DNA from: an uncultured Acidobacteriota bacterium
GTDB taxonomy: Bacteria; Acidobacteriota; Thermoanaerobaculia; Multivoradales; JAHEKO01
Length of the DNA stretch: 64,000 bases
Reading direction: 5' to 3'
Assembly (NCBI GenBank): GCA_963713825.1
Contig: CAVQNG010000025.1
Coordinates: forward strand, 224,001 to 288,000
Shown here piece by piece: positions 3,867-21,589 of the stretch (position 1 is its first letter; the number at the start of each line of letters is the position of its first letter). Made by a program: the position numbers and the translations under genes. The notes under the pieces were generated by a model, which searched no databases, was not told the origin of the DNA, and worked only from the letters and a program-made list of their open reading frames with translations.

Positions 3867-4068
3867 GTCCTTCCGATCGGTTCGAGAGTCAGCGAGAGGA
3901 ACTCCCCGGGGAGGAGCCCCAGATTCGTGTGCGATGCTCTGCACCTTATAGAATCGCCGCACTCTCGGGCAGGACGGCGAGGCCGAGGGAATTATGGGCC
4001 AGGTGGAAGCGGGCGGCAAGGGAAGCGCAACACTGAGACCAGGGAATCCAAGGGTGTTCAGGAATTCG

Positions 4069-7939: not shown

Positions 7940-10408
7940 ATGATCGGCAACACGATCGCTCATTACCGGATTCTCGAGTTGATCGGGAAGGGAGGAATGG
8001 GAGAGGTCTATCTGGCCGAGGATCTGGAGCTGGGGCGACAGATCGCGTTGAAGATGCTGCCGCCCCAGCTGGTGAACGAGCCTGACCGATTGGAGCGCTT
8101 CCGACGCGAGGCCAAGACTCTGGCCGCCCTCAACCACCCCAACATCGTCACCATCCACTCCGTGGAAACCGTCGATCTCGAAGCTCCAGGACCCAAGCCC
8201 CAGGACCCAGGGCAAGAAGGCCAGGCGCCGCCGGGCTCTTCGCCCCTTCATTTCCTCACCATGGAGCTCGTGGACGGCAGGACACTTGCGGACTCGATTC
8301 CTCCTGGCGGGCTTGCTGCGGAGAGAATCCTCGAACTGAGTGTCCCACTCGCCGATGCCTTGGCCAGGGCGCATGCGACTGGAATCGTCCACCGGGATCT
8401 GAAACCGGGCAACGTCATGGTGACCTCCGATGGTCGAGTCAAGGTCCTCGATTTTGGCTTGGCGAAGCTGCGAGGCGTTTCGTTGGCCGACGGGGAGACC
8501 CAGTTGGCTACAGAGGGGATCACAGGGGAGGGGCGAGTCCTCGGGACTGTTCCTTATATGTCTCCGGAGCAGGTCGTCGGCAGGGGGGTGGATCCGCGAT
8601 CCGACGTCTTCTCTCTGGGTGTGATGCTGTTCGAGATGGCGACTGGCAAGAGACCGTTTCGGGGCGAATCCTCGCCAGATCTGATCTCCTCGATCTTGCG
8701 GGATACGCCCAAGCGCGTCGATCTCCTGAACGAAGACCTGCCGCATCATCTGGCGCGGGTGATCGGACGCTGTCTCGAGAAGGATCCCGAGAGGCGCTAC
8801 CAGTCGGCGATCGACGTGCGCAACGAGCTGTCAGATCTCGCCCGGGAGCTCGATACGAAAGCGGTGCTCGAGGAGCACGCTGTTCCTGTGACGGTCACGG
8901 AACGGCCCTCGATACAGGGCTGGTTGCTGGGAATCGCGGCGATCGTCGCCATGATCCTGGTGGCTTCGGTCGCGGCCTATAAATTGGTCAAAACCCGTCG
9001 TCCCGGTTCGATCGCGAGTCAGACCACCGCGATTCGGTCGCTAGCTGTGCTGCCTTTCGACAATCTGATGAACGATCCGGAGCAGGACTACTTAGTCGAC
9101 GGGATGCACGAGGCTTTGATTACTGATCTGGCGAAGATCTCGGACCTGAAAGTAATCTCCCGAACGTCAGCAATGCGTTACAAGGGGTCGGACAAGACCC
9201 TGCCGGAGATCGCTCGCGAGCTGGGAGTCGAGGCACTGGTCGAAGGCTCGGTCCTGCGGGCCGAGGGCCAGGTGCGCATCACGGCTCAGCTCATCGATGG
9301 CGCCAGCGACGAGCACCTGTGGGCCGAGAGCTACGACCGTGATTTGGCGAACCTCCTCGCTCTTCTGAGCGACGTGGCCCGTGCCATCGCCACGGAGATC
9401 GAGGTCGAGCTGACCCAGGAGCAGGAAAGGCTGCTGACCTCGAAGACGGCGGTGAATCCAGAGGTGCAAGAGCTCTACCTGAAAGGCCGCTCGCTGCTGA
9501 GTCGGTTCGAGATGAAGCACATCCCCGAGGCGAGGCGGTTCTTCGAGCAGGTGCTGGCGATTGACCCCGATTTTGCTCCTGCGATCTCAGGTCTGGCGAG
9601 CTGCGATTTCTTGCTTGGATTCTTCGGGAGACTGCCTTTCGAGGCAGCGATGCCGGCAGCCGAAAAGGGGTTCCGGAGGGCTCTGGAGCTCGATCCCGAC
9701 CTGAGCCAAGCCCGGTCACTTCTCGGCTGGGTGAAGATGTTCTACCACTGGGACATCGCAGGAGGCGTCGAAGAGTTCGATCGGGCCCTGAGAATCGACC
9801 CCAATGATCCGATCGCCAGACACGGGATGGCCGACTACTACATGATTCTCGGAGATCGCGAGCGGTCCGTGGAGGAGGTGATGGCGGCTCGCAGGGTCGA
9901 CCCACTTTCTCGCGTTACGGTGATTCCAGTGATCGGTCACTTGATGATGGCTCGTCGCTACGAAGAGGCGCTCGACGAGACCCGCCAATGGATGGAGCTC
10001 TTCCCCGACGACAAAGGGGTGATTCTCACTTGGCTACCGATGATTCTCAAGCTGCAAGGTCGTTATGAAGAAGCCCTCGAGGAGGAGCGCAGCCTCTACC
10101 CTCCCGACTCCGGTTACCTCAAGGCTGTGGAACAGGGGTTCGAGGATGGGGGACCACGAGGCGCTGATCGGGCTGCGGGAGACTATCTGGCCAGCCGGTC
10201 ATCGCCATCGCCGATTCTGGTCGCGAGGACCTACGCTGCTGCTGGGGAGGTCGATCTGGCGTTCGAATGGCTAGATCGGGCATACGCGGTACGGGAACCT
10301 CAGCTTCTGCACGTAGTCGCCTATCCGCAATTCGACGCGATTCGCTCCGACCCGCGGTACGAGGAGCTGTTACGACGGATCGGCATCTTCCAAGAGCCAG
10401 AGGCATGA
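7940..10408 (+). CDS. Hanks-type Ser/Thr protein kinase with TM helix, TolB-like-N domain and TPRs
   Basis: GKGGMGEVY, ALKML, HRDLKPGN, DFGLAK and GTVPYMSPEQ motifs. TM segment WLLGIAAIVAMILVASVAAY, then SLAVLPFDNL and TPRs. Confidence 0.95.
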   Translation: MIGNTIAHYRILELIGKGGMGEVYLAEDLELGRQIALKMLPPQLVNEPDRLERFRREAKTLAALNHPNIVTIHSVETVDLEAPGPKPQDPGQEGQAPPGSSPLHFLTMELVDGRTLADSIPPGGLAAERILELSVPLADALARAHATGIVHRDLKPGNVMVTSDGRVKVLDFGLAKLRGVSLADGETQLATEGITGEGRVLGTVPYMSPEQVVGRGVDPRSDVFSLGVMLFEMATGKRPFRGESSPDLISSILRDTPKRVDLLNEDLPHHLARVIGRCLEKDPERRYQSAIDVRNELSDLARELDTKAVLEEHAVPVTVTERPSIQGWLLGIAAIVAMILVASVAAYKLVKTRRPGSIASQTTAIRSLAVLPFDNLMNDPEQDYLVDGMHEALITDLAKISDLKVISRTSAMRYKGSDKTLPEIARELGVEALVEGSVLRAEGQVRITAQLIDGASDEHLWAESYDRDLANLLALLSDVARAIATEIEVELTQEQERLLTSKTAVNPEVQELYLKGRSLLSRFEMKHIPEARRFFEQVLAIDPDFAPAISGLASCDFLLGFFGRLPFEAAMPAAEKGFRRALELDPDLSQARSLLGWVKMFYHWDIAGGVEEFDRALRIDPNDPIARHGMADYYMILGDRERSVEEVMAARRVDPLSRVTVIPVIGHLMMARRYEEALDETRQWMELFPDDKGVILTWLPMILKLQGRYEEALEEERSLYPPDSGYLKAVEQGFEDGGPRGADRAAGDYLASRSSPSPILVARTYAAAGEVDLAFEWLDRAYAVREPQLLHVVAYPQFDAIRSDPRYEELLRRIGIFQEPEA

Positions 10409-11328
10409 GTCACGAGATGAAGATCGGAGTCGTACTACTCGCCGTTCTGGTGGGATCGGTCGGCCTTCAGGGAGCCGGCGCGCAAACCGAATTGCAGGAG
10501 CTTCAGCTCGCACCAAGGGATCTCTCACAGCTTTCCGACCAGGAGATCGAGACCATCCTTCTCGAAGGGCGGGTTGTCGAGAGGGAGAATCTCGACGTCG
10601 GGGTGACCTTGCCGGAGCGTCTTTGGCTCGAGTACGAAGGCTACCGGATCAGCGCTGCTTTCAAGCATCTCGATTTCGAGCGCAAAGGGCTGACCCACTT
10701 CGAGAAGGCACCGCCCCAGCTCAACTTCAAGGACAGCTTTCGATACGAGCGGGCGGCGTACCTGTTGGACCGCCTTCTTGGTCTGCAGATGGTCCCGGTA
10801 ACGGTACTGCGGAACGTAAAGGCTCATAAAGGAGCCGTCGTGGCCTGGGTCGAGGACGCCATTACCGAGCAGGAGCGATTGCGTCTCAAGCTGGCGCCCG
10901 AGGACACCCGGCTTCTCATTCGGCAACGAGCGGCGATGCGGTTGTTCGACGCCCTGGTCTACAACATCGACAACAACCTCGGCAATCAGCTGTGGACGCG
11001 GCCGGATTGGCGCCTCCATCTAATCGACCATTCGCGCTCCTTTCGCCAACAGAGCAAGCTTCCCGAGAGCTTCGCGAACCGCCCGGTGAGCCTTGGCCCA
11101 GAGCTCTACGATGTCCTCAGGTCTCTCGAGGGGCCTCAGATCGAGGCGGCTCTCGGTGAGGTTCTGAGTCCGGGAGAGATCAAGACGCTGGTGGCGCGCC
11201 TCGAGCTGATTCTGGAGAAGATCGCGCACGATCGCCGAGACTATGGCGATCCGTTCGTGTTTCTGGGCAAAGGAGGAGCCTGGTGGGTGGCTTCCCGACC
11301 TATTCCGACCCGACTTGGTCTATATTGA
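10405..11328 (+). CDS. Exported atypical kinase-fold protein (FAM20/PI3-PI4K-like), paralogue A
   Basis: ATGA overlap with the upstream kinase stop. Signal peptide KIGVVLLAVLVGSVGLQGAGA. Motifs AAFK, YERAAYLLDRLLGLQMVP, FDALVYNIDNNLGN and LIDHSRSF. Confidence 0.7.
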   Translation: MSHEMKIGVVLLAVLVGSVGLQGAGAQTELQELQLAPRDLSQLSDQEIETILLEGRVVERENLDVGVTLPERLWLEYEGYRISAAFKHLDFERKGLTHFEKAPPQLNFKDSFRYERAAYLLDRLLGLQMVPVTVLRNVKAHKGAVVAWVEDAITEQERLRLKLAPEDTRLLIRQRAAMRLFDALVYNIDNNLGNQLWTRPDWRLHLIDHSRSFRQQSKLPESFANRPVSLGPELYDVLRSLEGPQIEAALGEVLSPGEIKTLVARLELILEKIAHDRRDYGDPFVFLGKGGAWWVASRPIPTRLGLY

Positions 11329-11349
11329 GCAGACCATAGGAGGGTTTCG

Positions 11350-14226
11350 GTGACCGGGGAGGTACCCGCGGGGCGGGGCGGAGGGGCTGCAGAAGCCGGA
11401 TGGAGGCGATTTCTCAGGCGCCTGGGTGTGGATTTGCGCCCGGGTGAAGGCTCTCCCGCCGCTCTCCTCTTCGCATCACTATTCCTCCTGCTGACCTTCC
11501 AGATTGCCACCAAGACGATCCGGCAATCGACGTTTATCGATGCTCTGGGCGCCGCCCGGCTGCCGCTGGTCTACCTACTGGTAGCGCTCGTCTCCTATCC
11601 GGTCCTACGTCTCTACAATCGATTCGTCGATCGCTATCGCATCGACCAGCTGTTCGTCGCCTCCTGCCTTGGAATTGCCGGTGGCCTGGTCGTCTTCTGG
11701 GTCCTGATGCGCTACTCCTGGACCTGGGTGCCGGTCGTCTTCTACGTCGGATCCTCGATCGTCTACGGCATGCTGGCAAGTCAGTTCTGGCTGCTCGCCA
11801 CCCACCTCTTCGATCCGCGCCAGGCCAAGCGGCTTTTCGGTTTCATTGGTGCCGGTGCCTTGCTGGGTGGCGTTCTCGGTGGGCAGGTGGCACGCCTGGC
11901 TGGAAAGCTGGTGGGGACGAGCTCGGTTCTGCTGGTGGCTGCAGTCCTGCTGGTGGCCGTGGCGCTGCTCATGATGCGGGCGCGCTCTTCGGAGTCCATC
12001 GAGCTCAAGGCAGAGGAGTCCAAGTCATCCCGAGGCAAGTTCGAAAAGGCCAAGGGGGGATTCGAGGTCCTGAGACAGTCCCGCCCACTGCAGACAATTG
12101 CCGCGGTGGTGATCCTGACGATCATGGTGGCGCAAGTCGTAGACCTCCAGTTCAATTGGGCTGTGGAGCAAAGCACCACCACCTTGGACCAGAGGACCGC
12201 CTTCTACGGCAACTTCTTCAGCGTCATGGGCATCGCCGCCTTCGTGTTCCAGTTAGCTTTCACCTCCCGGATCCACCGTCGGTTGGGCATCTCCTTCGCG
12301 CTACGGGTCCTGCCGGTAACGATGGCCATCGGCACCGTGGCTCTCTTTGTGGCGGCTGGCTTCGTCCCGGAGATGTTGGTGGCGGCGGCACTCATCCTGA
12401 AAGTGGGTGAGAGCGGCCTGCGGTACTCCCTGGACCAGTCGACACGAGAGCTCCTCTTTCTGCCCGTGCCATCAAGGCTGCGGGTCAAGGCCAAGGCCTT
12501 TATCGACGTCTTCATTCAACGGGGAGCGAAGGGGCTCTCGGCGCTCCTCTTGCTGCCGGTGACATTCGGGCTGTTCACCCCAGTCCAGGCCGGTTGGATA
12601 TCTCTCGTTCTCATCGCCATCTGGTTCGGTGTGACGGCGATTGCCTCGCGTGAGTACGTGCGGGCGTTCCGAGTCGGCCTCAAGAAGCGGACGGTAGACG
12701 CTTCCGTCGCGGTGGACCTGTCGGATGTGACTACCCTGGAGCTCTTATTGGAATCCCTTGGCAGCTCCGACAGGAGGCAGGTCCTTCACTGTCTGGACAT
12801 TCTGGTGGCCAATGGGCGCGGTGACCTGGTACCGCCACTGTTGCTGTACCACGACGAGCCCGAGGTGCGATTGCGGACGCTGGGCATCCTGGCCGAGCTC
12901 GGGCGCGTCGATGTCGCTCCTTTGATCGAGAGGCGATTGGGAGACACCGACCCCGAGGTGCGCGCCGAAGCCATCAGGGTGCTGGCGAGCCTCCAGGGCA
13001 AGGACGTCTGCGAGTTGATGCTCCCGAAACTGGAGGAGGGAGACCCGGGAGTGCGCGCCGCAGCCGTCGCCTGCCTGGCGAACTATGGCGACGAGTCGAT
13101 GACCGCAGATGCCACACGTGTGCTGCGAGGTCTCCTGGCGGAAGCCGACCCCAGACTGCGCATCGAGGCGGTCAAAGCCATCGGCGCTGTGCACGAGCCG
13201 CTCTTCCAGGAGCGCTTGATCCACTCGCTCTACGATCCCGACGTGGGGGTCGTAAAGGAGGCTGTCGCAGCGACACGCAGGCGAGTCGCCAGGGACGGCT
13301 TCAACCCACTCTACGTTTCAACTCTGATCGCGCTGCTGCAGAATCGTCGGGTCAGACACGAGACTCGGGAAGCGCTGGTGGCCTTTGGTGAGGCGACAAT
13401 TCCGATCCTGGTCCACTTCATGAATGATCCCGATGAGCCTTTGTGGGTGAAGCGGGCCTTGCCCAAGGCCCTCGCACAGATCGGCACTCTGGCCGCGGCC
13501 CAGGCGCTGCTGGACGGGTTGAAGCATGGTAGCGACAGCTTTCTGAGGCGAAAGCAGGTCGAAGCCCTCAACTGGATGCTCGATCACGGCCATCGCCATG
13601 CGCTGGATCGGTCCGCGGTACGACAGCAGATCACCGAAGAGGCAAGGCGATTCTTGCGCCGCCTGGCAGCGCTGCGAGGCTTGGGGTTGCAATCGAAGGG
13701 GGATCTGTCCGGTGCGGTCATCGTATGGAGTGAGGAGCGGGTCCCGACGCTTCTGGATCGATTGCTGGCCGAACGAGCGGCCAGCAATGTCAAGAACCTG
13801 TTCGGTCTCCTGGCGCTGTTGTATCCGCCGGAGCACATCTGGGCTGCCCATCGGAGTCTCACGAGTGGCGACCGACTTCACAGGTCTCGCGCACTGGAGT
13901 TCTTGGACAATACCCTGGATGGTGAGCTTAGCCGCGCGGTCTTTGCCGTCATCGACGATTGTCCCCTGAGTGAGAAGCTGACACGGGCCGCCAAGCTGTA
14001 CGACATACGGGTCCGATCCAGGGTCGAGACGCTGCGGAGCCTACTCGAGGCCTATCTGGGAGGCGAGCCCGACTCGGGTGGAATCGCGGCCGCCGCGCTC
14101 TATGAGATTCGAGTCGAGAGCATCTCCGGCCTGGAGGCCGAGATCGAGCGACTCGTAGCCGGTGCCGAGGACCCGTTTGTCGGAGAGACGGCCACATGGG
14201 TGGCCGAGCGGGTCGCTCGAGTCTAG
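11350..14226 (+). CDS. NTT/TLC (Npt1/Npt2-like) nucleotide transporter fused to HEAT repeats, paralogue 1
   Basis: Multi-TM N-terminal half with KTIRQS, SQFW...QAKRLFGFIGAG and RYSLDQSTRELLFLPVP...KAKAFIDV motifs. C-terminal HEAT repeats (DPEVRAEAIRVL). AGGAGG RBS before GTG. Confidence 0.85.
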   Translation: MTGEVPAGRGGGAAEAGWRRFLRRLGVDLRPGEGSPAALLFASLFLLLTFQIATKTIRQSTFIDALGAARLPLVYLLVALVSYPVLRLYNRFVDRYRIDQLFVASCLGIAGGLVVFWVLMRYSWTWVPVVFYVGSSIVYGMLASQFWLLATHLFDPRQAKRLFGFIGAGALLGGVLGGQVARLAGKLVGTSSVLLVAAVLLVAVALLMMRARSSESIELKAEESKSSRGKFEKAKGGFEVLRQSRPLQTIAAVVILTIMVAQVVDLQFNWAVEQSTTTLDQRTAFYGNFFSVMGIAAFVFQLAFTSRIHRRLGISFALRVLPVTMAIGTVALFVAAGFVPEMLVAAALILKVGESGLRYSLDQSTRELLFLPVPSRLRVKAKAFIDVFIQRGAKGLSALLLLPVTFGLFTPVQAGWISLVLIAIWFGVTAIASREYVRAFRVGLKKRTVDASVAVDLSDVTTLELLLESLGSSDRRQVLHCLDILVANGRGDLVPPLLLYHDEPEVRLRTLGILAELGRVDVAPLIERRLGDTDPEVRAEAIRVLASLQGKDVCELMLPKLEEGDPGVRAAAVACLANYGDESMTADATRVLRGLLAEADPRLRIEAVKAIGAVHEPLFQERLIHSLYDPDVGVVKEAVAATRRRVARDGFNPLYVSTLIALLQNRRVRHETREALVAFGEATIPILVHFMNDPDEPLWVKRALPKALAQIGTLAAAQALLDGLKHGSDSFLRRKQVEALNWMLDHGHRHALDRSAVRQQITEEARRFLRRLAALRGLGLQSKGDLSGAVIVWSEERVPTLLDRLLAERAASNVKNLFGLLALLYPPEHIWAAHRSLTSGDRLHRSRALEFLDNTLDGELSRAVFAVIDDCPLSEKLTRAAKLYDIRVRSRVETLRSLLEAYLGGEPDSGGIAAAALYEIRVESISGLEAEIERLVAGAEDPFVGETATWVAERVARV

Positions 14227-14245
14227 ATTCGAGCCAGGGATGACC

Positions 14246-14251
14246 TATAAT
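14246..14251 (+). promoter_or_regulatory. Possible internal sigma70 -10 element upstream of the second NTT gene
   Basis: Perfect TATAAT in the 54-bp gap between the two transporter genes. No clear -35. Confidence 0.35.
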
Positions 14252-14280
14252 CCTAGGGCCATTCTGCGCAGGAGGAACGG

Positions 14281-17160
14281 ATGAGTCCAGACGTGCCTGG
14301 AACAGCTGAGGCTACACAAGAGACGTCTCTCTGGCGACGTCTGACCAGCCGTCTGGGGATCGACATGCGGCAGGGCGAAGGTTGGCCCGCTGTCCTGCTT
14401 TTCATCACCTTCTTTCTCTTCATCACCTTTCAATACGCCACCAAGAGCGTTCGGCAGTCGTCCTATATCAAGGGGTTGGGGGCGGCCAACTTGCCCTGGG
14501 TCTATCTGGCGGTGGCGATCTGCTCGTATCCGTTGCTTCGACTGTACGGGCGGTTTGCTGATCGGATCAAGCGCCACCATTTGATGGCGGCCACTTGCAC
14601 CATCATTGCCCTCAGCATGGTGGTCTTTTGGTGGCTGTTCCAGTTCAACTGGGCATGGATTCCATTTGCTCTCTACGTCTGGATCTCGATCGCCTATGTC
14701 ATGAACGTCAGCCAGTTCTGGTCGTTCTCGAACCATGTCTTCGATCCCCGTCAGGCCAAGCGCCTGTTCGGCTTCATCGGAGCTGGGGGACTGCTGGGCG
14801 GCATTGCGGGCGGTCAGGTGGCCCGCCTGGTCAGCTATCTGGTCGACACCCGGACCACGTTTCTGGTGGCGGCCGTCATTCTCATGCTGGCTGTTGCGAT
14901 CATCTTCCTGATTCAGAAGCGAAGCCCTGCAGAATCGGATGCGGTGGCTGGCGCTGCGGGCCTGGCCAAGCTCGACAAGGCCAAAGGCGGCTTCGAGATC
15001 ATCAAGGGCTCGCGTCAACTGCAGGTCATCGCGGCAATCATGGTGCTGAGTGTCGTGGTAGCTCAGATCGTGGATTTGCAGTTCAACTGGGCAGTCGAGA
15101 GTGCAACGACCGACCTGGAGAACGCCACGCGGTTCTTCGGCAACTTCTACAGCATCATGGGGATCGCAGCCTTTCTGTTCCAGCTGGCCTTTACGGCTCG
15201 CATTCACCGGGTCCTGGGTGTCGGGGTAGCGATGAGGATTCTGCCAGTCACCTTGGCTTTCGGCACGGCGGCGCTTTTCGTTTCGGCAGGGTTCTTCCCG
15301 GCGCTCCTTCTGGTGACGGCTCTGTTCCTGAAGGTCGGTGAGAACGGAGTGCGCTATTCGCTCGAGCAGGCGACCCGCGAGCTTCTGTTCCTGCCTGTGC
15401 CCTCGCAAGCCCGCGTCAAGGCGAAGGCCTTTATCGACGTCTTCGTGCAACGCGGCGCCAAAGGCATGGCGGCCCTCCTCCTTCTTCCTGTGACATTCGG
15501 CTTGATCACCGCAGTTCAGGCTGGCTGGATCTCATTGGTTCTCATCGCGCTCTGGTTGGGCGTAACCTTCATTGCCTACAAGGAGTACGTGCACTCGTTT
15601 CGGCGCGTTCTCAAGACGCGAAGTGTCGATGCGGAGATTCCTATCGACATCACCGACGTCACGACCCTGGAGATGCTCGTGCAGGCTCTGGGGAGCTCGG
15701 ATGCTCGCCAGGTGATGCAGAGCCTCGACATCCTGGCCTCCAACGGTCGAGAGAACCTCGTCTCTCCGCTGCTGCTCTACCATGATGATGCCGAGGTGAG
15801 GCAGCACACCCTCGAAATCCTGGCCAAGTCGGGGCGAGTCGATGCCTTGCCCCTGATCGAGGGGCGCTTGGCGGATCAGAACCCGGAAGTCAGGGCCGCG
15901 GCGATCGAGACGATGGCCAAGCTGCATGGCGAAGATGCGTGCGAGCTGATGCTGCCACGGCTCAGAGAGAGTGACGCTGGGGTGCGGGCTGCGGCAGTGG
16001 CCTGCCTGGCCAACTATGGAACAGAGTCGATGCTGGGCGAGGCCACACGCTCGCTGGGTGATCTCTTGTCCGATGCCGATCCCGAGATCCGAGCCGAGGC
16101 AGCGAAGGCCCTCGGAGCCATTCACGAGCCCCGATTTCAGGAGCTTCTCATTCGCTTGCTCTACGATCGAGAGCCGCTGATCGCTCGCGAAGCGATCTCG
16201 GCCATCCGTCGCAGGGTGGCGCGAGACGGCTACAACCCGATCTACGTGCCGACCCTGGTGTCGCTGTTGAACAGCCGTCGGGTCAAGCACGACGCGAGGG
16301 AGGCTCTCGTTGCTTTCGGCGAGCCGGCGATTCCGGCTCTGGCCCACTTCATGGGGGATGGCGATGAGCAGTTGTGGGTGCGACGGGCTCTGCCGATGAC
16401 CATCGCCAAGATCGGCACGCTGGCCGCCGCCGAGAAGCTCCTGGATCAGCTGACCCAATCGGCAGATTCCTTTCAGCGCCGCAAATTGATCGAGTCGGTC
16501 GGAGCCCTACCTGATGACATTCGGCATACGGCCGACTCGAAGACCATCGATCAGCAGATTCACTTCGAGGCCGGGCGCTATCTTCAGGCTCTCGCCGATC
16601 TGCGAGCCCTAGGGGCAATCGAGAAGAGCAGGCTCGAGGGTGGCTGTGTCACCTGGCGTGAGGATGCTCAGGAGCCCAACCTGGTAGAGCGGCTTCTCGG
16701 GGAGCGCGCCGAAGAGCACCTGCGCAACATCTTCGGCCTGATGGCGGCTCTCCTTCCACCCCGCGACGTCTGGGCTGCCCATCGCAGCTTGACGGGTGGC
16801 GCCTCCGGTTTGCGAAGCCACGCACTGGAGTACCTGGACAACACGCTGTCGGGCGACTTGCGGCGAAGCGTGTTCGCGGTCATCGATGATCAACCTCTCG
16901 ACGAGAAGCTCAGCGCCGCTGCGAAGCACTTTGGCGTGACGAGCACGACAAAGGTCGCGGTATTGGACAGGATGCTGGTCGAACCAGAGGATGGAGACTC
17001 CGAGGAGTACCATCTCACGCTGGCGGCTCTCTATGCCGTGCACGAAGGAAGAATCGCCGAGCTATACGATCGAGTTCGGTCGCTGGTGCAGAACGCCACG
17101 GACCCGTTCGTCGGTGAAACGGCCCGTTGGGTCGCGGTGCGAGAGGGAATCTCCACGTAG
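14281..17160 (+). CDS. NTT/TLC (Npt1/Npt2-like) nucleotide transporter fused to HEAT repeats, paralogue 2
   Basis: Colinear with paralogue 1 (KSVRQS, SQFW...QAKRLFGFIGAG, RYSLEQATRELLFLPVP...KAKAFIDVFVQRG), with HEAT repeats. AGGAGG RBS. Confidence 0.85.
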   Translation: MSPDVPGTAEATQETSLWRRLTSRLGIDMRQGEGWPAVLLFITFFLFITFQYATKSVRQSSYIKGLGAANLPWVYLAVAICSYPLLRLYGRFADRIKRHHLMAATCTIIALSMVVFWWLFQFNWAWIPFALYVWISIAYVMNVSQFWSFSNHVFDPRQAKRLFGFIGAGGLLGGIAGGQVARLVSYLVDTRTTFLVAAVILMLAVAIIFLIQKRSPAESDAVAGAAGLAKLDKAKGGFEIIKGSRQLQVIAAIMVLSVVVAQIVDLQFNWAVESATTDLENATRFFGNFYSIMGIAAFLFQLAFTARIHRVLGVGVAMRILPVTLAFGTAALFVSAGFFPALLLVTALFLKVGENGVRYSLEQATRELLFLPVPSQARVKAKAFIDVFVQRGAKGMAALLLLPVTFGLITAVQAGWISLVLIALWLGVTFIAYKEYVHSFRRVLKTRSVDAEIPIDITDVTTLEMLVQALGSSDARQVMQSLDILASNGRENLVSPLLLYHDDAEVRQHTLEILAKSGRVDALPLIEGRLADQNPEVRAAAIETMAKLHGEDACELMLPRLRESDAGVRAAAVACLANYGTESMLGEATRSLGDLLSDADPEIRAEAAKALGAIHEPRFQELLIRLLYDREPLIAREAISAIRRRVARDGYNPIYVPTLVSLLNSRRVKHDAREALVAFGEPAIPALAHFMGDGDEQLWVRRALPMTIAKIGTLAAAEKLLDQLTQSADSFQRRKLIESVGALPDDIRHTADSKTIDQQIHFEAGRYLQALADLRALGAIEKSRLEGGCVTWREDAQEPNLVERLLGERAEEHLRNIFGLMAALLPPRDVWAAHRSLTGGASGLRSHALEYLDNTLSGDLRRSVFAVIDDQPLDEKLSAAAKHFGVTSTTKVAVLDRMLVEPEDGDSEEYHLTLAALYAVHEGRIAELYDRVRSLVQNATDPFVGETARWVAVREGIST

Positions 17161-17181
17161 AAAGTTGGAGGAGGGAAACCT

Positions 17182-17595
17182 GTGTCTGAGTTAGCCAGGA
17201 TCGAAACGGTCGTCTTCCTGCAGAGCGTCGACGTCTTTTCCTATTGCAAGGCGGAGGAAGTGCTCAGGATTGCCGCTATTGCTCAAGAGAGGGCGGTGGC
17301 CGCAGGCGAGAAGATCTACAGCGCGAACGAGCCAGCCGAGGCAATGTTCTGCGTGGTTCGGGGCATGGTCAAGGTCGAGCCCGGCAACGGCGAGACCAAG
17401 ACAGTCGGCCCTCTGGCGACGTTCGGGGGGGTCGACATTCTTCGCAGTCGACTGCGGACGGCGAGCGCGACAGCCGAAACCGATGTCCTGCTGTTGGCCA
17501 TCGAGAGCGACGATCTGTTCGACCTGCTGTCGAACAACATCGAGATCGTCAAGGCTCTCTTCCGTCATCTCATCGAGCGGTTTCAGTACGAGTAG
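17182..17595 (+). CDS. Stand-alone cyclic nucleotide-binding domain protein
   Basis: LQSVDVFS...GEKIYSANEPAEAMFCVVRGMVKV...FGGVDIL...RTASATA matches the CNB fold pattern. Strong RBS. Confidence 0.85.
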   Translation: MSELARIETVVFLQSVDVFSYCKAEEVLRIAAIAQERAVAAGEKIYSANEPAEAMFCVVRGMVKVEPGNGETKTVGPLATFGGVDILRSRLRTASATAETDVLLLAIESDDLFDLLSNNIEIVKALFRHLIERFQYE

Positions 17596-17617
17596 TTCGA
17601 AGTGCAAGGAGGCCTGA

Positions 17618-18556
17618 ATGTTCGTATCGAGTAGAAGAACGGGGCGAGGGTTGTGGATGTCTGGTTGCAAAGCCCTGTTGGTATTTGCTTGTCTGGCCTC
17701 TTGGAGTGGCCATGCATTGGAGGCTGCAGACGCGAAGACGCCTGACCGCGTTTTTCATGGTCCTGATGGCACGCCTCTGCCTTTCCAGACGGTCTCCGAG
17801 GTCGAAGAGTTCCTGCGCACGGCGAGGGTTATCAACGTCGAAGCGATTCCCGAGGGAGTCACCAAGCCGAAGAAGATTCTCCTGGAAGCGAGCGGTGTCC
17901 AGGCGCATGCGAAGTTCGGTTACAACGATTTCAAGGGCCAGGGGGAGAAGCTCGCCGACGGCACCACGGAGATGTACTTCCAAGACAGCTACAAGGCGGA
18001 CATAGCAGCCTTCGTCCTCAGTCGGCTGTTGGGCATGGAGATGGTACCGCCAGCGGTTACCCGACAGGTGGAGGGCCAGGACGGCATCGTTCAGATTTGG
18101 ATCGAGGGGCTGACCAGCTACGAGAGCTGGCTAGAGGACGGCAATTCCGGCCAGCCAGCCTCACTGTACTTCCAGAGACAGGTCAAGGACATGAAGACGT
18201 TCGACCTGCTGATTCGGAATATCGACCGCCATAGTCGCAACATCAACTGGGACAGCGACTGGAATCTCTGGCTCATCGACCACACGCGCAGCCTGGCGAA
18301 GGACGCCACCCTGCGCAAGCCTGATTCCTTCAAGGGCTGCTCCAGGGAGCTCTTTCGGGCGATTCGAGACCTGAACAAGAGCACAGTGGAGACGGCTCTC
18401 AAGCCCTATCTGGGTAACTTCGAGATCAAGGCCCTCCTCAAGCGACGGGACAAGCTCGTCAAGTTGGTCGAAGGCCAGATCAAGAAGCAGGGTGAAGACA
18501 CAATCCTGTTCAACTACGGCGATGCTCCTCCAGGCCTAGTTATCAGCTACGACTAG
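17618..18556 (+). CDS. Exported atypical kinase-fold protein (FAM20/PI3-PI4K-like), paralogue B
   Basis: Signal peptide-like ALLVFACLASWSGHALEA. Motifs GVTKP, DSYKADIAAFVLSRLLGMEMVPP, FDLLIRNIDRHSRN and WLIDHTRSL. Confidence 0.72.
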   Translation: MFVSSRRTGRGLWMSGCKALLVFACLASWSGHALEAADAKTPDRVFHGPDGTPLPFQTVSEVEEFLRTARVINVEAIPEGVTKPKKILLEASGVQAHAKFGYNDFKGQGEKLADGTTEMYFQDSYKADIAAFVLSRLLGMEMVPPAVTRQVEGQDGIVQIWIEGLTSYESWLEDGNSGQPASLYFQRQVKDMKTFDLLIRNIDRHSRNINWDSDWNLWLIDHTRSLAKDATLRKPDSFKGCSRELFRAIRDLNKSTVETALKPYLGNFEIKALLKRRDKLVKLVEGQIKKQGEDTILFNYGDAPPGLVISYD

Positions 18557-18666
18557 AGTGCCCGGCTGCAATCGGTCGGCAGCGAAGCCGGCGGCGTTGG
18601 ATCTTGCGCTCCGCCGGCTCGGACCACTCATGGGCTGGGTGGGCCTGAAAAACCCAGGAGAGAAGT

Positions 18667-19686
18667 TTGCGTAGTATGGGAATGGACACCTGCCAGACAG
18701 GGCTTCCCTTGGGGAAGCCGAAGGCTTCCGAGCCTCAGAGTGGTGGAGCTGGTGCCGCCAGCGCTCCCAAGTTGCTGCAGAGAAGCGTCGGCCTTGGATG
18801 TCTGATCGTTTCCCTGTTGTTGTTCGAGCCTCCGGAGGCATCCGCACAGCCGGGTCCTTCTGGAACGTTCGACACCCGAACCTGGCTGGGCCCTGATGGG
18901 AAGACTCTCCCGATTACCGCCGAGAACGAGCTCCTGCGGTTTCTCGACAGCGCTTCGGAGACCTCCGTCAAGATCCTCTCGCGAGGCATCACTGGGGCCA
19001 AGAGACTGACGCTGGAGCAGGGAGGGGTCGAGGCTCGAGTCGTCTTCCATGACATCAACCGGTCCGAGCAGAGGCCGAAACGGCTGCCGAACAAACGGAC
19101 CGTGATGTATCTGCGCGACAGCTACAAGAGTCAGATCGCCGCCTATCGACTCAGCAGGCTGCTGGGTATGAAGAACGTGCCGCCGACCGTGGTGCGGGTC
19201 TCGGGAGCGGCGACGGGCTCGGCTCAGCTTTGGATCGAAGATGCGATGACCGAGGACATCCGACTGGAAAAGGGCGTCGAGCTGCGGGACCATAACCTGC
19301 GGAATCAGAACCTGGTCGACATGCGGGTCTTCGACAACCTCATCAACAACATCGACCGTAACCAGGGCAACATGTTGGTGGATTCCTTCGGTACCCTTTG
19401 GTTGATCGACCACACCCGATCGTTCGGGCAGGACAACGGACTGCCGCTGCCCGAGATGATCACGCGGTGCTCGAATCGGATGCTGCAGGCCATTCGTTCG
19501 CTGGACGAGCGGACCTTGCGAGAGGACCTCGGGCCCTACCTCACCGGAGTCGAGATCGGGGCGCTGTGGCAGCGCCGAGAGAGGGTGTTGGAGCGCATCG
19601 AGGAGCTCATCGGCGGCAAGGGCAGGGACCAGGTTCTTTTCGACTACGGCGATCCCGATCCTGGTGTCATCATTCTGGAACAGTGA
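18667..19686 (+). CDS. Exported atypical kinase-fold protein (FAM20/PI3-PI4K-like), paralogue C (start uncertain)
   Basis: Hydrophobic leader VGLGCLIVSLLLF...ASA. Motifs GITGA, DSYKSQIAAYRLSRLLGMKNVPP, FDNLINNIDRNQGN and WLIDHTRSF. Confidence 0.72.
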   Translation: MRSMGMDTCQTGLPLGKPKASEPQSGGAGAASAPKLLQRSVGLGCLIVSLLLFEPPEASAQPGPSGTFDTRTWLGPDGKTLPITAENELLRFLDSASETSVKILSRGITGAKRLTLEQGGVEARVVFHDINRSEQRPKRLPNKRTVMYLRDSYKSQIAAYRLSRLLGMKNVPPTVVRVSGAATGSAQLWIEDAMTEDIRLEKGVELRDHNLRNQNLVDMRVFDNLINNIDRNQGNMLVDSFGTLWLIDHTRSFGQDNGLPLPEMITRCSNRMLQAIRSLDERTLREDLGPYLTGVEIGALWQRRERVLERIEELIGGKGRDQVLFDYGDPDPGVIILEQ

Positions 19687-19780
19687 ACGGGCTGCGGCTT
19701 GGTGGTGACGAAGCTGGTGTCGTAGGAGGCGACGACCGGGCTCGCCAAATCCCGGGGCCGGCGAGGGTAGACTAGCCCGA

Positions 19781-21589
19781 ATGACGCAGACCGCCTTCCC
19801 CGATCTGAGAGCCTTCCTCGAGCACCTGAAGCGAGATGGAGATCTCGCCGTAGTAGAGGCTCCCGTCGATCCTCTTCTCGAAGTGGCAGAGATCCACCGC
19901 AGGGTGATTGCCGCTGATGGTCCAGCCCTACTGTTCACCAACCCCGTAGACTCGGCCTATCCGCTGGCGACGAATCTCTTCGGATCCACCCGCCGAGTGG
20001 AAGCCGCTTTCGGGCGCCAGCCGTTTCGCCTCATCGAGCGTCTCGTTGCGCTCTCCCAGGAGCTGTTGCCGCCGACGCTGTCAGGCCTCTGGGGTGCGAA
20101 GGACGTGGCTTGGGAAGCGCTGCGAATCGGTACCAAGAGAACCGGCCAGGGACCCGTCATGCAAAGGGTGATCCGAGACCCGGATCTGACCCGATTGCCG
20201 GTGATCACGTCCTGGCCCGATGATGGAGGGCCCTTTGTGACCCTGCCATTGGTGTTTACCGAGCACCCAGACGGTGCCGGTCACAATCTGGGGATGTACC
20301 GGATGCAGGTCCACGACCGGCGCTCGACCGGGATGCACTGGCAGATTGGCAAAGGGGGCGGCTTCCACTATTCAGTAGCCGAGGCTCTCCAGCAGCCTCT
20401 CCCGGCAACGGTCTACCTCGGAGGACCACCGGCCTTGATTCTCGCCGCGGTGGCACCGCTGCCAGAGAACGTTCCCGAGCTCATGCTGGCCTCGCTGATC
20501 GCCGGAGAGAAATTGCGCGTTTGTGCGGCACCCGAGGGGGGCAGCCTGCTGGCTGATTGTGAGTTCGCCCTGAGGGGTAGGGTGCCTGCCGACCTGCGCC
20601 GCACAGAGGGCCCGTTCGGTGACCACTATGGTTACTATTCTCTCGCCCACGACTACCCGGTATTCGAAGTCGATTGGATCGCTTGTCGTAAGGATGCGAT
20701 CTATCCCGCGACGGTGGTGGGCAAGCCCCGGCAGGAGGATTTCTTCATCGGGGATCTACTGCAGGAGTTGCTGGCGCCCCTGTTTCCCTTGGTGATGCCG
20801 GGAGTGATCGATCTCTGGTCCTATGGAGAGACCGGCTACCACTCGTTGGCAGCAGCCGTCGTCAAAGAGCGCTACAAGCGTGAGGCCATGGCCAGCGCAT
20901 TTCGGATCCTGGGGGAGAGCCAGCTCTCACTCACGAAGTTTCTGCTGATCACCGACCAGAGAGTGGATCTGAAGGATTTCAAGGCTACTCTCGAGCACGT
21001 CCTGGAGCGCACACGACCCGAGACCGATCTCTTTGTTCTCAGCAATCTCTCGATGGACACGCTGGATTACTCCGGGCCCCGGGTCAACGAAGGCTCGAAG
21101 GGAGTCTTGCTGGGGCTGGGAGAGCCGGTGCGACAACTGCCAGGGGAGTTTCAGGCCGACGTCTTGCCGTCCGGAGTGACCGATGTCCAGGTCTTCTGTC
21201 TGGGCTGTCTGGTCGTCGGCGGTCCTCCGCATGCCGACGAGCCCAAGGCGGGTCAGCGTCTGGCGGCCGAGTCGGTGTTTCGCGATTGGCCCTTGCTCGT
21301 CTTGACGGACGAGCCGTCCCGAGCGGCTGCCAGTGCGATGAACTTCCTGTGGACGACGTTTACCCGTTTCGAGCCGGCCGCCGATATCCATGCCGCCGCC
21401 AGCCGGGTGGAGCGAAACCACGTAACCTACGACCCGCCCATCCTGATCGATGCCCGGCGCAAGGCGGGTTTTCCTGAGGAGCTCTTCTGTTCGCCCGAGA
21501 TCGCCGACAGGGTGACTCGGAGATGGCAGGAGTACTTTCCGCAGGGCAGTATCGAGATGGGTGACTCCGACCGCGGCCACCTGGACTAG
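19781..21589 (+). CDS. ubiD: UbiD-family (prFMN-dependent) decarboxylase, long form
   Basis: NLFGS, NLGMYRMQ, EGPFGDHYGYY and TVVGKPRQED motifs. Confidence 0.88.
   Translation: MTQTAFPDLRAFLEHLKRDGDLAVVEAPVDPLLEVAEIHRRVIAADGPALLFTNPVDSAYPLATNLFGSTRRVEAAFGRQPFRLIERLVALSQELLPPTLSGLWGAKDVAWEALRIGTKRTGQGPVMQRVIRDPDLTRLPVITSWPDDGGPFVTLPLVFTEHPDGAGHNLGMYRMQVHDRRSTGMHWQIGKGGGFHYSVAEALQQPLPATVYLGGPPALILAAVAPLPENVPELMLASLIAGEKLRVCAAPEGGSLLADCEFALRGRVPADLRRTEGPFGDHYGYYSLAHDYPVFEVDWIACRKDAIYPATVVGKPRQEDFFIGDLLQELLAPLFPLVMPGVIDLWSYGETGYHSLAAAVVKERYKREAMASAFRILGESQLSLTKFLLITDQRVDLKDFKATLEHVLERTRPETDLFVLSNLSMDTLDYSGPRVNEGSKGVLLGLGEPVRQLPGEFQADVLPSGVTDVQVFCLGCLVVGGPPHADEPKAGQRLAAESVFRDWPLLVLTDEPSRAAASAMNFLWTTFTRFEPAADIHAAASRVERNHVTYDPPILIDARRKAGFPEELFCSPEIADRVTRRWQEYFPQGSIEMGDSDRGHLD

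Follow-up and report, generated by a model that had tools for sequence, protein, structure and literature searches.

NTT-HEAT carriers clustered with exported Fam20-like kinases in an uncultured Acidobacteriota bacterium: a candidate ATP supply for periplasmic phosphorylation

The gene cluster

The stretch of DNA analysed here (the window, 64,000 nucleotides) carries on its + strand a cluster of six genes in the order kinase A, NTT-HEAT 1, NTT-HEAT 2, cNMP protein, kinase B and kinase C. The intergenic gaps are, in order, 21, 54, 21, 22 and 110 bp, and the open reading frame coordinates bear out the initial annotation, which had described six co-directional genes with gaps of 21-110 bp. Immediately upstream, a Ser/Thr kinase gene (7940-10408) shares an ATGA with kinase A, its stop codon overlapping the kinase A start, so that the co-directional run comprises seven genes:

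7940..10408, + strand: Hanks-type Ser/Thr kinase with a TolB_N-like and TPR extracytoplasmic part (Pfam: Pkinase E 3.1e-42, TPR, TolB_N)
10405..11328, + strand: kinase A, exported Fam20-like kinase, 307 aa (leader, alignment with kinases B and C)
11350..14226, + strand: NTT-HEAT carrier 1, 958 aa (TLC 58 bits, HEAT_2 E 1.9e-28)
14281..17160, + strand: NTT-HEAT carrier 2 (NTT2), 959 aa (TLC 47.7 bits, HEAT_2 E 7.8e-30)
17182..17595, + strand: stand-alone cNMP-binding-domain protein without a leader, 137 aa (PF00027, 55.7 bits)
17618..18556, + strand: kinase B, exported Fam20-like kinase, 312 aa (leader, motif alignment)
18667..19686, + strand: kinase C, exported Fam20-like kinase, 339 aa from the TTG at 18667 (Fam20C 27.4 bits)

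The start of kinase C is uncertain: the TTG at 18667 has AGGAG 6 nt upstream, and most relatives are about 35 aa shorter. A crude consensus scan for promoters and terminators around the cluster gave nothing informative. The upstream Hanks-type kinase probably does not belong to the system. Kinases of this type abound in the genome (91 Pkinase matches), and they occur at 16 of the 80 kinase loci surveyed, no more than the chance expectation. An RNA-library contig of 273 nt maps without differences to 10849-11121, inside kinase A, and another of 941 nt, with 22 differences, covers the end of NTT2, the cNMP gene and the start of kinase B. The longer contig is a hint that the NTT2-cNMP-kinase B stretch is expressed, to be read knowing that RNA-library contigs may include DNA and that one contig over several genes does not prove a single transcript.

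Exported Fam20-like kinases

Kinases A, B and C each begin with a hydrophobic stretch followed by a small-x-small site. The signal-like leaders claimed in the initial annotation are thus present in all three proteins, and they recur in the relatives, as judged by a crude heuristic for an h-region plus a small-x-small site: 101 of the 120 short relatives pass it, as do 69 of the 77 long ones, and most of those that fail are truncated gene calls. The cytoplasmic controls (the cNMP protein, UbiD and the Ser/Thr kinase) fall below the hydrophobicity threshold of the test. Two long relatives (P0192 and P0196) have a Hanks kinase at the N terminus and a hydrophobic stretch later in the chain, a layout that might be compatible with a Hanks kinase in the cytoplasm and a Fam20-like domain on the outside, linked by a membrane span.

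Single-sequence Pfam matches of these kinases are weak. Kinase C is the sole window kinase to reach a Pfam cut-off, and only marginally (Fam20C, PF06702; 27.4 bits against 26.8). Kinase B matches Fam20C, PI3_PI4 and HipA_2 at E ~0.01 (Fam20C at 16 bits), and kinase A matches HipA_2 at 0.025 only, with no Fam20C match. All three lie below the curated cut-offs of PF00454 (PI3/PI4-kinase), PF20613 (HipA_2) and TIGR03843 (SCO1664 family), kinase A scoring 45 bits with the last of these, while a paralogue just outside the window exceeds that of PF00454 (33.7 bits against 27.1). Their identity is settled by a family profile and by fold. The family comprises 3,313 representatives at 50% identity (E up to 1e-10), and its profile, when compared with PDB sequences, matched FAM20A (4.2e-14), FAM20C (1.6e-9) and xylosylkinase (9.7e-8). 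The top Foldseek matches of the AF2 model of kinase C (pLDDT 84.6) are all Fam20C, Fam20A or Fam20B, at probability 1.00 and E ~1e-10. The query-normalised TM is 0.52-0.55, counting about 67 disordered residues, and the target-normalised TM is 0.41-0.51. Type II PI4K forms the next tier after Fam20 (E ~1e-7). Both the model and the profile thus return a Fam20-like fold, in line with what the initial annotation had expected, and the three motifs that it had read as common to the kinases are all found in the alignment of the three proteins. Taken together, sequence, profile and predicted structure show that kinases A, B and C are exported, are related to the Fam20 kinases of the secretory pathway and retain the full catalytic Asp/Asn/Asp set.

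That set (D230, N235 and D248) is invariant in family alignment A1 and common to kinases A, B and C; its residues are kept in 335, 330 and 336, respectively, of the 336 family domains. They align with the Fam20 DRH and DN(G/A) motifs as catalytic Asp, Asn and metal-binding Asp, the last being the DFG-equivalent Asp478 in the relevant passage on Fam20C (PMC5413348). Position 128 aligns with the ATP-phosphate-binding Lys of the Fam20C/Fam20B 'FKP' strand. This position is His in 158 and Arg in 148 of the 336 domains and Lys in only 13. Since this Lys is mostly replaced across the family, the proteins are best filed as a Fam20-like sister family and not as Fam20 proper. Kinase A has Lys at this position, kinase B has Gly, with a Lys two residues before it, and kinase C has His; the alignment with Fam20C and Fam20B gave no canonical ATP-binding lysine in kinases B and C. 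Positions 128 and 156 covary among the 336 domains (R-E 146, H-Q 136, H-N 19, K-E 7, K-D 6), as expected of a strand/helix contact pair under constraint. Kinase A is the sole one of the three with the Lys/Glu pair, and kinase C has His/Gln.

The rarity of Lys at position 128, together with the Gly of kinase B, raises the question of whether these proteins use ATP in the usual way. They might employ another donor, catalyze another reaction or bind in a pseudokinase-like manner, in which case an envelope process or a form of regulation common to both, and not ATP supply, would explain why they are linked to the carriers. FAM20A, which gave the best match among PDB sequences, is described as a pseudokinase in the part of the literature that bears on it (PMC5413348). 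However, the near-complete retention of the three catalytic residues, the covariation of the strand/helix pair in place of decay and the Lys/Glu pair of kinase A all argue against such a loss. In addition, the dominant fusion partner of the family is a PPP-type phosphatase domain, carried by 69 of the 77 longer relatives, which fits real phosphotransfer. We consider it unlikely that the family has abandoned ordinary ATP use.

The phosphatase fusion is also found in four paralogues elsewhere in the same genome, and a kinase B orthologue of 723 aa (L005:7707-9878) has an N-terminal match to the Metallophos domain. The N-terminal domain of the fused relatives matches two Shewanella phosphatase chains in the PDB (1v73/2z72) at E ~1e-33. 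These chains were deposited as protein-tyrosine-phosphatase and psychrophilic phosphatase I, and the first of these names hints at protein substrates.

Carriers, regulatory subunit and linkage to the kinases

On the evidence of sequence, profile and model, the two long proteins are shown to be NTT-type carriers, with a transmembrane domain closest to the solved ATP/ADP translocators. Both exceed the 21-bit cut-off of TLC (PF03219), and they are 58% identical to each other. In NTT-HEAT 1 the TLC/NTT-type transporter domain (about residues 40-430) is followed by a cytoplasmic HEAT-repeat tail, and residues 42-427 match the Chlamydia pneumoniae NTT1 ATP/ADP translocator (9j3n_A, E 1.8e-8). The AF2 model of NTT2 (pLDDT 79.2) has as its top Foldseek matches 9j3n, 9j3l and 9j3m (target-normalised TM 0.66-0.73), and other MFS proteins rank after them. 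The first matches of the model are the solved Chlamydia and Arabidopsis translocators, which supports the earlier call of NTT-type transporters. The window carriers are distant from characterised NTTs: they are 16-17% identical to the solved ones and score 51.5 and 41.1 bits with TIGR00769 (NTP/NDP exchange transporter, an NCBIfam superfamily model), below its cut-off of 387.2. A crude hydropathy count on the carriers gave only 8-10 peaks.

Major, Embley and Williams (2017, PMC5381601) had previously described an NTT-HEAT gene next to a cNBD gene. The passages of that paper on these genes state the role as unknown and suggest cAMP-tuned ATP uptake or transfer across thylakoids. Searching its text for the word 'export' gave 0 occurrences, and exported kinases are absent from its relevant passages. 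HEAT repeats with a cNBD gene directly downstream were also found at L001, L002, L005-L007, L011, L015-L017, L048 and L069.

The 137-aa protein of the window lies well above the cNMP_binding cut-off of 27.5 bits, and neither this protein nor the carrier HEAT tails have an export signal. It is probably a cytoplasmic regulatory subunit of the carrier tail, at whose end it is predicted to dock. The predicted complex of the protein with NTT2 residues 440-959 gave an ipSAE of 0.62 against 0.01 for the best control. In calibration, 58 of 80 solved complexes reached the mark, as did 2 of 110 mismatched pairs; contact agreement between runs was at least 88% and partner pLDDT at least 84. The contact residues are invariant among orthologues. 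The initial annotation had the cNMP subunit act together with the HEAT module, and the predicted docking is in keeping with that proposal. The phosphate-binding cassette is degenerate with respect to what we take to be its consensus (Glu, Arg-Thr-Ala): Glu is replaced by Gly here, and Arg-Thr-Ala is not conserved among orthologues.

A cytoplasmic tail of about 500 aa, predicted to hold a dedicated cNMP-domain subunit, might suggest that NTT-HEAT proteins serve mainly in signalling, the transporter domain sensing how kinases and phosphatases have set the state of the periplasm and the tail relaying this to the cytoplasm, with little net nucleotide flux. However, HEAT-less NTT genes of 440-448 aa also directly adjoin kinase genes (L044, G401, G439), which makes the transporter domain, not the tail, the common partner. 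We consider a mainly signalling role quite unlikely.

Association with the kinases extends well beyond the window. A match to the NTT transmembrane domain was found at 32 of the 80 kinase loci, in every case at most 5 kb away and in four orientation classes, and at 21 of the 42 loci flanked on either side by 8 kb or more. If 0.5-2 NTT genes per Mb are assumed, about 1-2% would be expected by chance. Adjacency is scattered over many kinase clades, and was found for 11 of 15 phosphatase-fused kinase genes versus 16 of 59 solo genes. At the genome level, an NTT-like gene is present in 101 of the 102 Acidobacteriota genomes with a kinase versus 82 of the 299 without (401 genomes in all), counts in which related genomes are not independent and which include the unpublished, NTT-positive and kinase-negative G049. 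G369 (92% complete) is the sole kinase-bearing genome of this set without an NTT-like match. In a second phylum (that of G401; 301 genomes), an NTT gene is present in 3 of 4 kinase genomes versus 36 of 297 others. The two genes share a contig in all three: in two of them they are separated by 73-74 bp, and in the third they converge at a distance of a few kb; the fourth, G441, has a weak, partial kinase match and gave no NTT-like match. The linkage that the initial annotation had expected to be conserved is thus found again in further genomes, including some of a second phylum. Adjacency is not universal: 3 of 5 near-complete genomes have all their kinase matches more than 10 kb away from any NTT match, and of the 29 kinase matches listed for near-complete genomes only 4 are NTT-adjacent.

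The full window-type order was seen only in the close relatives L001 and L002 and, in altered form, in L005-L007, as would be seen if the neighbourhood were merely an inherited gene order without functional meaning. This explanation, already disfavoured, is very hard to reconcile with carriers only 27-35% identical across the four orientation classes, with adjacency in many kinase clades and in a second phylum, and with the genome-level co-occurrence.

The 82 kinase-free genomes with NTT-like genes mean that the carriers must have further roles. They also lend some weight to the view that the carriers work inward, scavenging nucleotides or other solutes, while the exported kinase and phosphatase proteins process external material upstream of that uptake and no phosphate donor comes from the carriers. 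All characterised parasite and plastid NTTs import, according to the relevant part of Major et al. (2017, PMC5381601), and the habitats of the present organism, sediments and salt marsh, contain external nucleotides. However, an exported kinase would still need a phosphate donor, and this view names none. The 80 kinase loci show no recurrent nuclease or nucleotidase family, the chain that best matches the fused phosphatase domain was deposited as a protein-tyrosine-phosphatase, and the near-constant presence of an NTT-like gene in kinase genomes is consistent with kinases that depend on the carriers. Purely inward transport is, in our judgement, rather unlikely.

A possible phosphorylation module and its relation to known systems

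The clustering of three exported Fam20-like kinases with two transporters resembling ATP/ADP carriers suggests, but does not prove, that ATP is fed into the periplasm for phosphorylation. We give a probability of roughly 0.55 to the reading that the cluster is an extracytoplasmic phosphorylation module, in which a periplasmic kinase/phosphatase system draws on ATP exported by the carriers, which take ADP (plus Pi) back. The carriers would act as exchangers, moving cytoplasmic ATP out and ADP back in, and the periplasmic kinases would use this ATP. The PPP-type phosphatase domains would undo the modification and free Pi, which the carriers may also import, as Pi is the counter-substrate in the ADP/Pi-bound entry of plant NTT1. 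The HEAT/cNMP tail would throttle ATP release according to the cytoplasmic state. On the other hand, ATP let into a diderm periplasm could leak via porins. The interpretation offered in the initial annotation is supported in part. All the computational checks that it suggested turned out favourably: the leaders, the kinase fold, the likeness of the carriers to ATP/ADP translocators, the linkage and the predicted docking speak for it. The gaps in adjacency, the NTT genes in kinase-free genomes and the missing lysine of kinases B and C weaken it. A literature search found no paper on a partnership of NTT carriers with exported Fam20-like kinases.

A broader and more tentative proposal, which we hold to be possible but somewhat doubtful, is that reversible, ATP-driven periplasmic phosphorylation operates in many diderms, with NTT export, a kinase/PPP-phosphatase cycle and HEAT/cNMP metering, and that the family may be the bacterial stock of the eukaryotic secretory-pathway kinases. 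To our knowledge, the periplasm is generally regarded as free of ATP, and the phosphotransfer known there runs on other donors. If the export of ATP is correct, a dedicated supply for exported kinases and phosphatases would be a new layer of bacterial envelope regulation, the widespread uncharacterised NTT-HEAT carriers of free-living bacteria would gain a role, and the animal secretory-pathway kinases would have a bacterial counterpart. With only a few named parts involved, the idea is directly open to transport and kinase assays.

Several known systems resemble parts of the cluster. LpxT phosphorylates lipid A at the periplasmic face from undecaprenyl pyrophosphate, without ATP. This is likewise phosphotransfer outside the diderm cytoplasm, but the donor is membrane-borne and not a soluble nucleotide, and the enzyme is unrelated. 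Type II phosphatidylinositol 4-kinases share the second-tier fold match and the weak PF00454 similarity, but they are cytoplasmic lipid kinases. The Shewanella phosphatases 1v73/2z72 match at the level of the domain, which here is joined to an exported Fam20-like kinase but is missing from kinases A, B and C. Chlamydia pneumoniae NTT1 and Arabidopsis AtNTT1 (9j3n, 9j3l, 9j3m) are the best structural matches of NTT2, with a sequence match over about 386 residues, but they have no HEAT tail and import host or cytosolic ATP.

The Fam20 kinases (Fam20C, Fam20B and the pseudokinase Fam20A) share with the window kinases export by a signal sequence, the fold, profile-level homology and the aligned catalytic residues, and both groups would need ATP across a membrane from its site of synthesis. 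In the secretory pathway an ATP/ADP exchanger of the ER and Golgi feeds the Fam20 kinases, whereas the candidate supplier in the window is an NTT/MFS-type carrier. The window kinases further differ in being bacterial, in their size of about 300 aa without the Fam20 insertions and in the lysine position, which is mostly His or Arg in their family. By word search only, bacteria and prokaryotes are not named in the main text of a Fam20 review and a Fam20 evolution paper. On the carrier side, the NTT-HEAT(-cNBD) proteins in the corresponding passages of Major et al. (2017, PMC5381601) have the same architecture as those of the window, with the cNBD gene a few nucleotides downstream.

The gene cluster and the export leaders of its kinases

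We identified six co-directional open reading frames in the order given by the initial annotation, and its range of 21-110 bp for the gaps also agreed with the ORFs (21, 54, 21, 22 and 110 bp in order from kinase A to kinase C).

10405-11328, + strand: kinase A
11350-14226, + strand: NTT-HEAT 1, carrier with TLC domain and HEAT repeats
14281-17160, + strand: NTT-HEAT 2, carrier with TLC domain and HEAT repeats
17182-17595, + strand: cNMP-domain protein, 137 aa
17618-18556, + strand: kinase B
18667-19686, + strand: kinase C

Kinase A starts in overlap with the stop codon of the gene before it, which encodes a Ser/Thr kinase, and a UbiD-family gene lies downstream of kinase C. G+C content is uniform across the window (about 0.60-0.65). 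The genome itself, of 5.4 Mb, is 96% complete, and sediment and salt-marsh metagenomes from 14 studies contain the stretch. The counts in a promoter and terminator scan of the window were at the level of shuffled sequence. An antisense open frame of 437 aa without a Pfam match covers kinase C (18628-19941, - strand), and similar frames lie over kinase genes in 16 loci; the frame has its most likely origin in the G+C richness of the coding sequence. A further gene for an atypical kinase fold within these 25 kb is 3994-5292 (+ strand), whose product is a DUF2252 protein with a weak kinase signature of the APH type.

Contigs from two RNA libraries cover only small parts of the stretch, and uncovered parts are uninformative. 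The longest, 941 nt with 22 differences, spans the cNMP gene together with the end of NTT-HEAT 2 and the beginning of kinase B; another, 472 nt with 30 differences, bridges the two carrier genes at their junction, and a contig of 273 nt with 0 differences lies inside kinase A. These contigs are only a hint of cluster expression; RNA libraries can contain DNA, and a contig that crosses genes is no proof of one transcript.

The signal-like leaders attributed to the three kinases were found in all of them by a sequence heuristic, each N-terminus having a basic stretch, a hydrophobic core and a small-x-small site. A crude test (an 11-residue window of mean hydropathy at least 2.0 within the first 70 residues, plus a small-x-small site) was passed by 101 of 120 short relatives and 69 of 77 long relatives, the failures being mostly proteins that begin inside the mature domain. 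The controls (cNMP protein, UbiD and Ser/Thr kinase) fell below the hydrophobicity threshold. In one relative the leader is of the lipoprotein type. Two proteins of about 1170 aa from other organisms, P0192 and P0196, combine a Hanks Ser/Thr kinase domain (Pfam) with a Fam20-like part. Their Hanks kinase is N-terminal and a later hydrophobic stretch fits a membrane span before the Fam20-like domain; this putative order suggests kinases on both sides of the membrane.

Our leading reading of the cluster, to which we give a probability of about 0.55, is that it serves a periplasmic kinase/phosphatase system, for which the carriers would let ATP out of the cytoplasm in exchange for ADP, and possibly Pi, from the periplasm. 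The grounds are how the cluster is built, the export signals and Fam20-like fold of kinases whose catalytic set is intact, carriers of the NTT type, the docking predicted for the cNMP protein and the repeated association of these genes.

The carriers and the cNMP-domain protein

Both carriers (958 and 959 aa) scored above the Pfam cut-off for TLC and contain HEAT repeats; their scores with the NCBIfam NTP/NDP exchanger model were far below its cut-off. Residues 42-427 of NTT-HEAT 1 align to PDB chain 9j3n_A, the Chlamydia pneumoniae NTT1 translocator (E 1.8e-8). For the AF2 model of NTT-HEAT 2 (pLDDT 79.2, pTM 0.48, alignment of nine rows), the top three PDB matches were ATP-bound C. pneumoniae NTT1, ATP-bound Arabidopsis AtNTT1 and ADP/Pi-bound AtNTT1, with target-normalised TM of 0.66-0.73, and other MFS transporters ranked lower. 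Because the N-terminus is basic, the big central loop is rich in Lys and Arg and the tail is modelled as all-helical from about residue 460 of NTT-HEAT 2, we infer from MFS topology that both termini and the tail are cytoplasmic. A hydropathy-based count of transmembrane segments gave 10 and 8 peaks, not 12, and was rejected as too crude.

The cNMP protein has no leader. Co-folding it with residues 440-959 of NTT-HEAT 2 gave an ipSAE of 0.62 (0.56, 0.62 and 0.71 in the runs), while the best control reached 0.01; the runs had at least 88% of contacts in common, with a partner pLDDT of at least 84. The ipSAE mark was reached by 58 of 80 solved complexes and 2 of 110 mismatched pairs, a calibration that is only rough here since our own alignments were used. 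The predicted contacts join residues 5-32 and 113-118 of the cNMP protein to residues 664-950 of the tail, and many of these residues are invariant across orthologues. The model supports a putative binding of the cNMP protein to the NTT-HEAT 2 tail. The phosphate-binding cassette of the cNMP domain is degenerate against the consensus, and variable across orthologues.

NTT-like carriers are widespread also without kinases, and inward scavenging by the carriers is one rival to outward exchange of ATP. A signalling role of the carriers is another. If the carriers export ATP, the HEAT/cNMP tail would restrict its loss. NTT-HEAT proteins, a cNBD gene a few nt downstream of theirs and three-domain fusions were already reported by Major et al. 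2017 (PMC5381601), who called the function unknown.

Phosphatase fusions and linkage of kinases and carriers

The family profile of the kinases matched 7,266 representatives (50% identity clusters) at E <=1e-3 and 3,313 at E <=1e-10, and none of the 120 short relatives listed has a functional name. A Metallophos domain is present in 69 of the 77 longer relatives; at E about 1e-33 it hits Shewanella phosphatase chains (1v73/2z72) whose deposited name is protein-tyrosine-phosphatase. The genome that contains the window has nine family matches: besides kinases A to C, there is a match some 3 kb upstream of the window, another on contig C1, and four long frames of about 600-670 aa. Two of the long forms are on its contig C3.

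L082:2089-4083, contig C3: N-terminal Metallophos before the Fam20-like domain
L083:3693-5618, contig C3: N-terminal Metallophos before the Fam20-like domain

A leader is present in the one contig-C3 form that was translated. Further long forms on contigs C26 and C27 score identically and could be two assemblies of a single repeat. At L005, a locus outside the window, the gene at the place of kinase B is itself a Metallophos/Fam20-like fusion. In the proposed system, the fused phosphatases would remove the mark and free Pi. The upstream match (L081:6636-7520) is a fourth exported Fam20/PI4K-like kinase, which passes the PF00454 cut-off with 33.7 bits. Behind it, in a region that runs into window positions 3-2828, come a methyltransferase gene and the gene of a further Ser/Thr kinase that bears TolB_N and TPR domains.

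The expected linkage of NTT and kinase genes was borne out in 80 kinase loci, surveyed on contigs of one genome per species. An NTT transmembrane-domain match (E <1e-10) was present in 32, always within 5 kb of the kinase, against 1-2% by chance if 0.5-2 NTT genes per Mb are assumed. Where the contig extended at least 8 kb on each side, the match was present in 21 of 42 loci. The NTT gene was upstream on the same strand in 12 loci, convergent in 11, downstream on the same strand in 7 and divergent in 2. Inherited gene order alone is a rival explanation of this linkage. Identity to the window carriers goes down to 27-35% in most NTT-bearing loci, and adjacency is scattered across many clades of the kinase tree. 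It was commoner in phosphatase fusions (11/15) than in solo kinases (16/59), by crude gene calls that include some short contigs. Pfam confirmed the fusion-NTT pairs of L011, L053 and L044, the last with a carrier that lacks the HEAT tail. In L006, from a record titled Polyangiaceae, the order NTT1-NTT2-cNMP-kinase-kinase-UbiD is of the Acidobacteriota type (56-73% identity); this cluster reflects either gene transfer or a mis-binned contig.

Among 401 Acidobacteriota genomes, 102 have the kinase and 183 an NTT-like gene. The latter was found in 101 of the 102 genomes with a kinase versus 82 of the 299 without (Fisher's p about 2e-42, an overstated value since related genomes are not independent). 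The sole exception, G369, is 92% complete. These counts include G049, an unpublished NTT-positive, kinase-negative genome, without which they become 182/400 overall and 81/298 for genomes lacking the kinase. The linkage recurs in the phylum of G401, the genome of L044, titled Desulfobacterales: of 301 genomes, 4 have the kinase, 39 an NTT-like gene and 3 both. In these three the genes share a contig: two genomes have a spacing of 73-74 bp, and in the other one the genes converge at a distance of a few kb. The fourth kinase genome, G441, has a weak, partial kinase match.

Five near-complete genomes gave 29 kinase and 16 NTT matches, with most kinase paralogues dispersed and adjacency only in G112 and G002. 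No kinase-NTT pair within 10 kb was found in the other three (G393, G190 and G082); therefore, the two genes need not adjoin. The G002 kinase beside NTT-HEAT/cNMP genes (G002:C1:1795756-1796557) matches in two adjoining pieces (profile 23-215 and 214-290) and may be frameshifted.

Clustered crude gene calls from the 80 loci gave as recurrent neighbours only kinases, NTT genes, Ser/Thr kinases, an antisense artefact, histidine kinases, sigma-54 activators and a few housekeeping genes, and no candidate kinase substrate was found among them. Hanks Ser/Thr kinases were dropped as a part of the system: they occur in 16 of the 80 loci, which is no more than chance because the genome of the window has 91 Pkinase matches, about 17 per Mb. 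For 5.4 Mb, this is an unusually large set.

Fold and catalytic residues of the kinases

Kinases A, B and C share 29-37% pairwise identity, and the common motifs described initially are present in the alignment of all three. Single sequences gave marginal Pfam matches. A 62-row family profile matched PDB sequences of FAM20A (4.2e-14), FAM20C (1.6e-9), a Fam20B-type xylosylkinase (9.7e-8) and C. elegans Fam20 (4.2e-7). The AF2 model of kinase C (pLDDT 84.6, low solely in residues 1-67) placed Fam20C, Fam20A and Fam20B on top of a structure search (E about 1e-10), followed by type II PI4-kinases, so that the predicted fold is of the FAM20/PI4K-like kind that had been anticipated.

In HMMER alignments, the catalytic loop and Asp-His motif of the family align with the DRH and DN(G/A) motifs of Fam20, and family position 128 aligns with the Lys of the 'FKP' strand in Fam20C and Fam20B. 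According to PMC5413348, two lysines of Fam20C are critical for phosphate binding, among them Lys271, and its DFG-type Asp is Asp478. Across 336 family domains, D151, D230 and D248 are conserved in 335-336 and N235 in 330; position 128 is His in 158, Arg in 148 and Lys in 13. It covaries almost perfectly with position 156 in a helix (Arg-Glu 146, His-Gln 136, His-Asn 19, Lys-Glu 7, Lys-Asp 6), a pair that we read as a probable conserved strand/helix contact whose chemistry differs by clade. The pair is Lys/Glu in kinase A, His/Gln in kinase C and Gly/Asp in kinase B, which has a Lys two residues before.

The intact catalytic set argues for catalytic activity, and the three kinases would use the exported ATP on envelope substrates. 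The missing position-128 lysine of kinases B and C is a real caveat to activity, and non-ATP chemistry of Fam20-like proteins is a rival explanation at this point. Searches on exported or periplasmic bacterial Fam20-like kinases, their link to NTT carriers and NTT-HEAT proteins in Acidobacteria found no paper on such kinases or on the partnership; the supplements of Major et al. might list neighbouring genes. By word search, "bacteria" and "prokaryote" are absent from the main text of a Fam20 review and of a Fam20 evolution paper. One difference from the known enzymes lies in the 'FKP' strand: Fam20C and Fam20B carry Lys there, whereas among the window kinases Lys is found only in A, with His in C and Gly in B.
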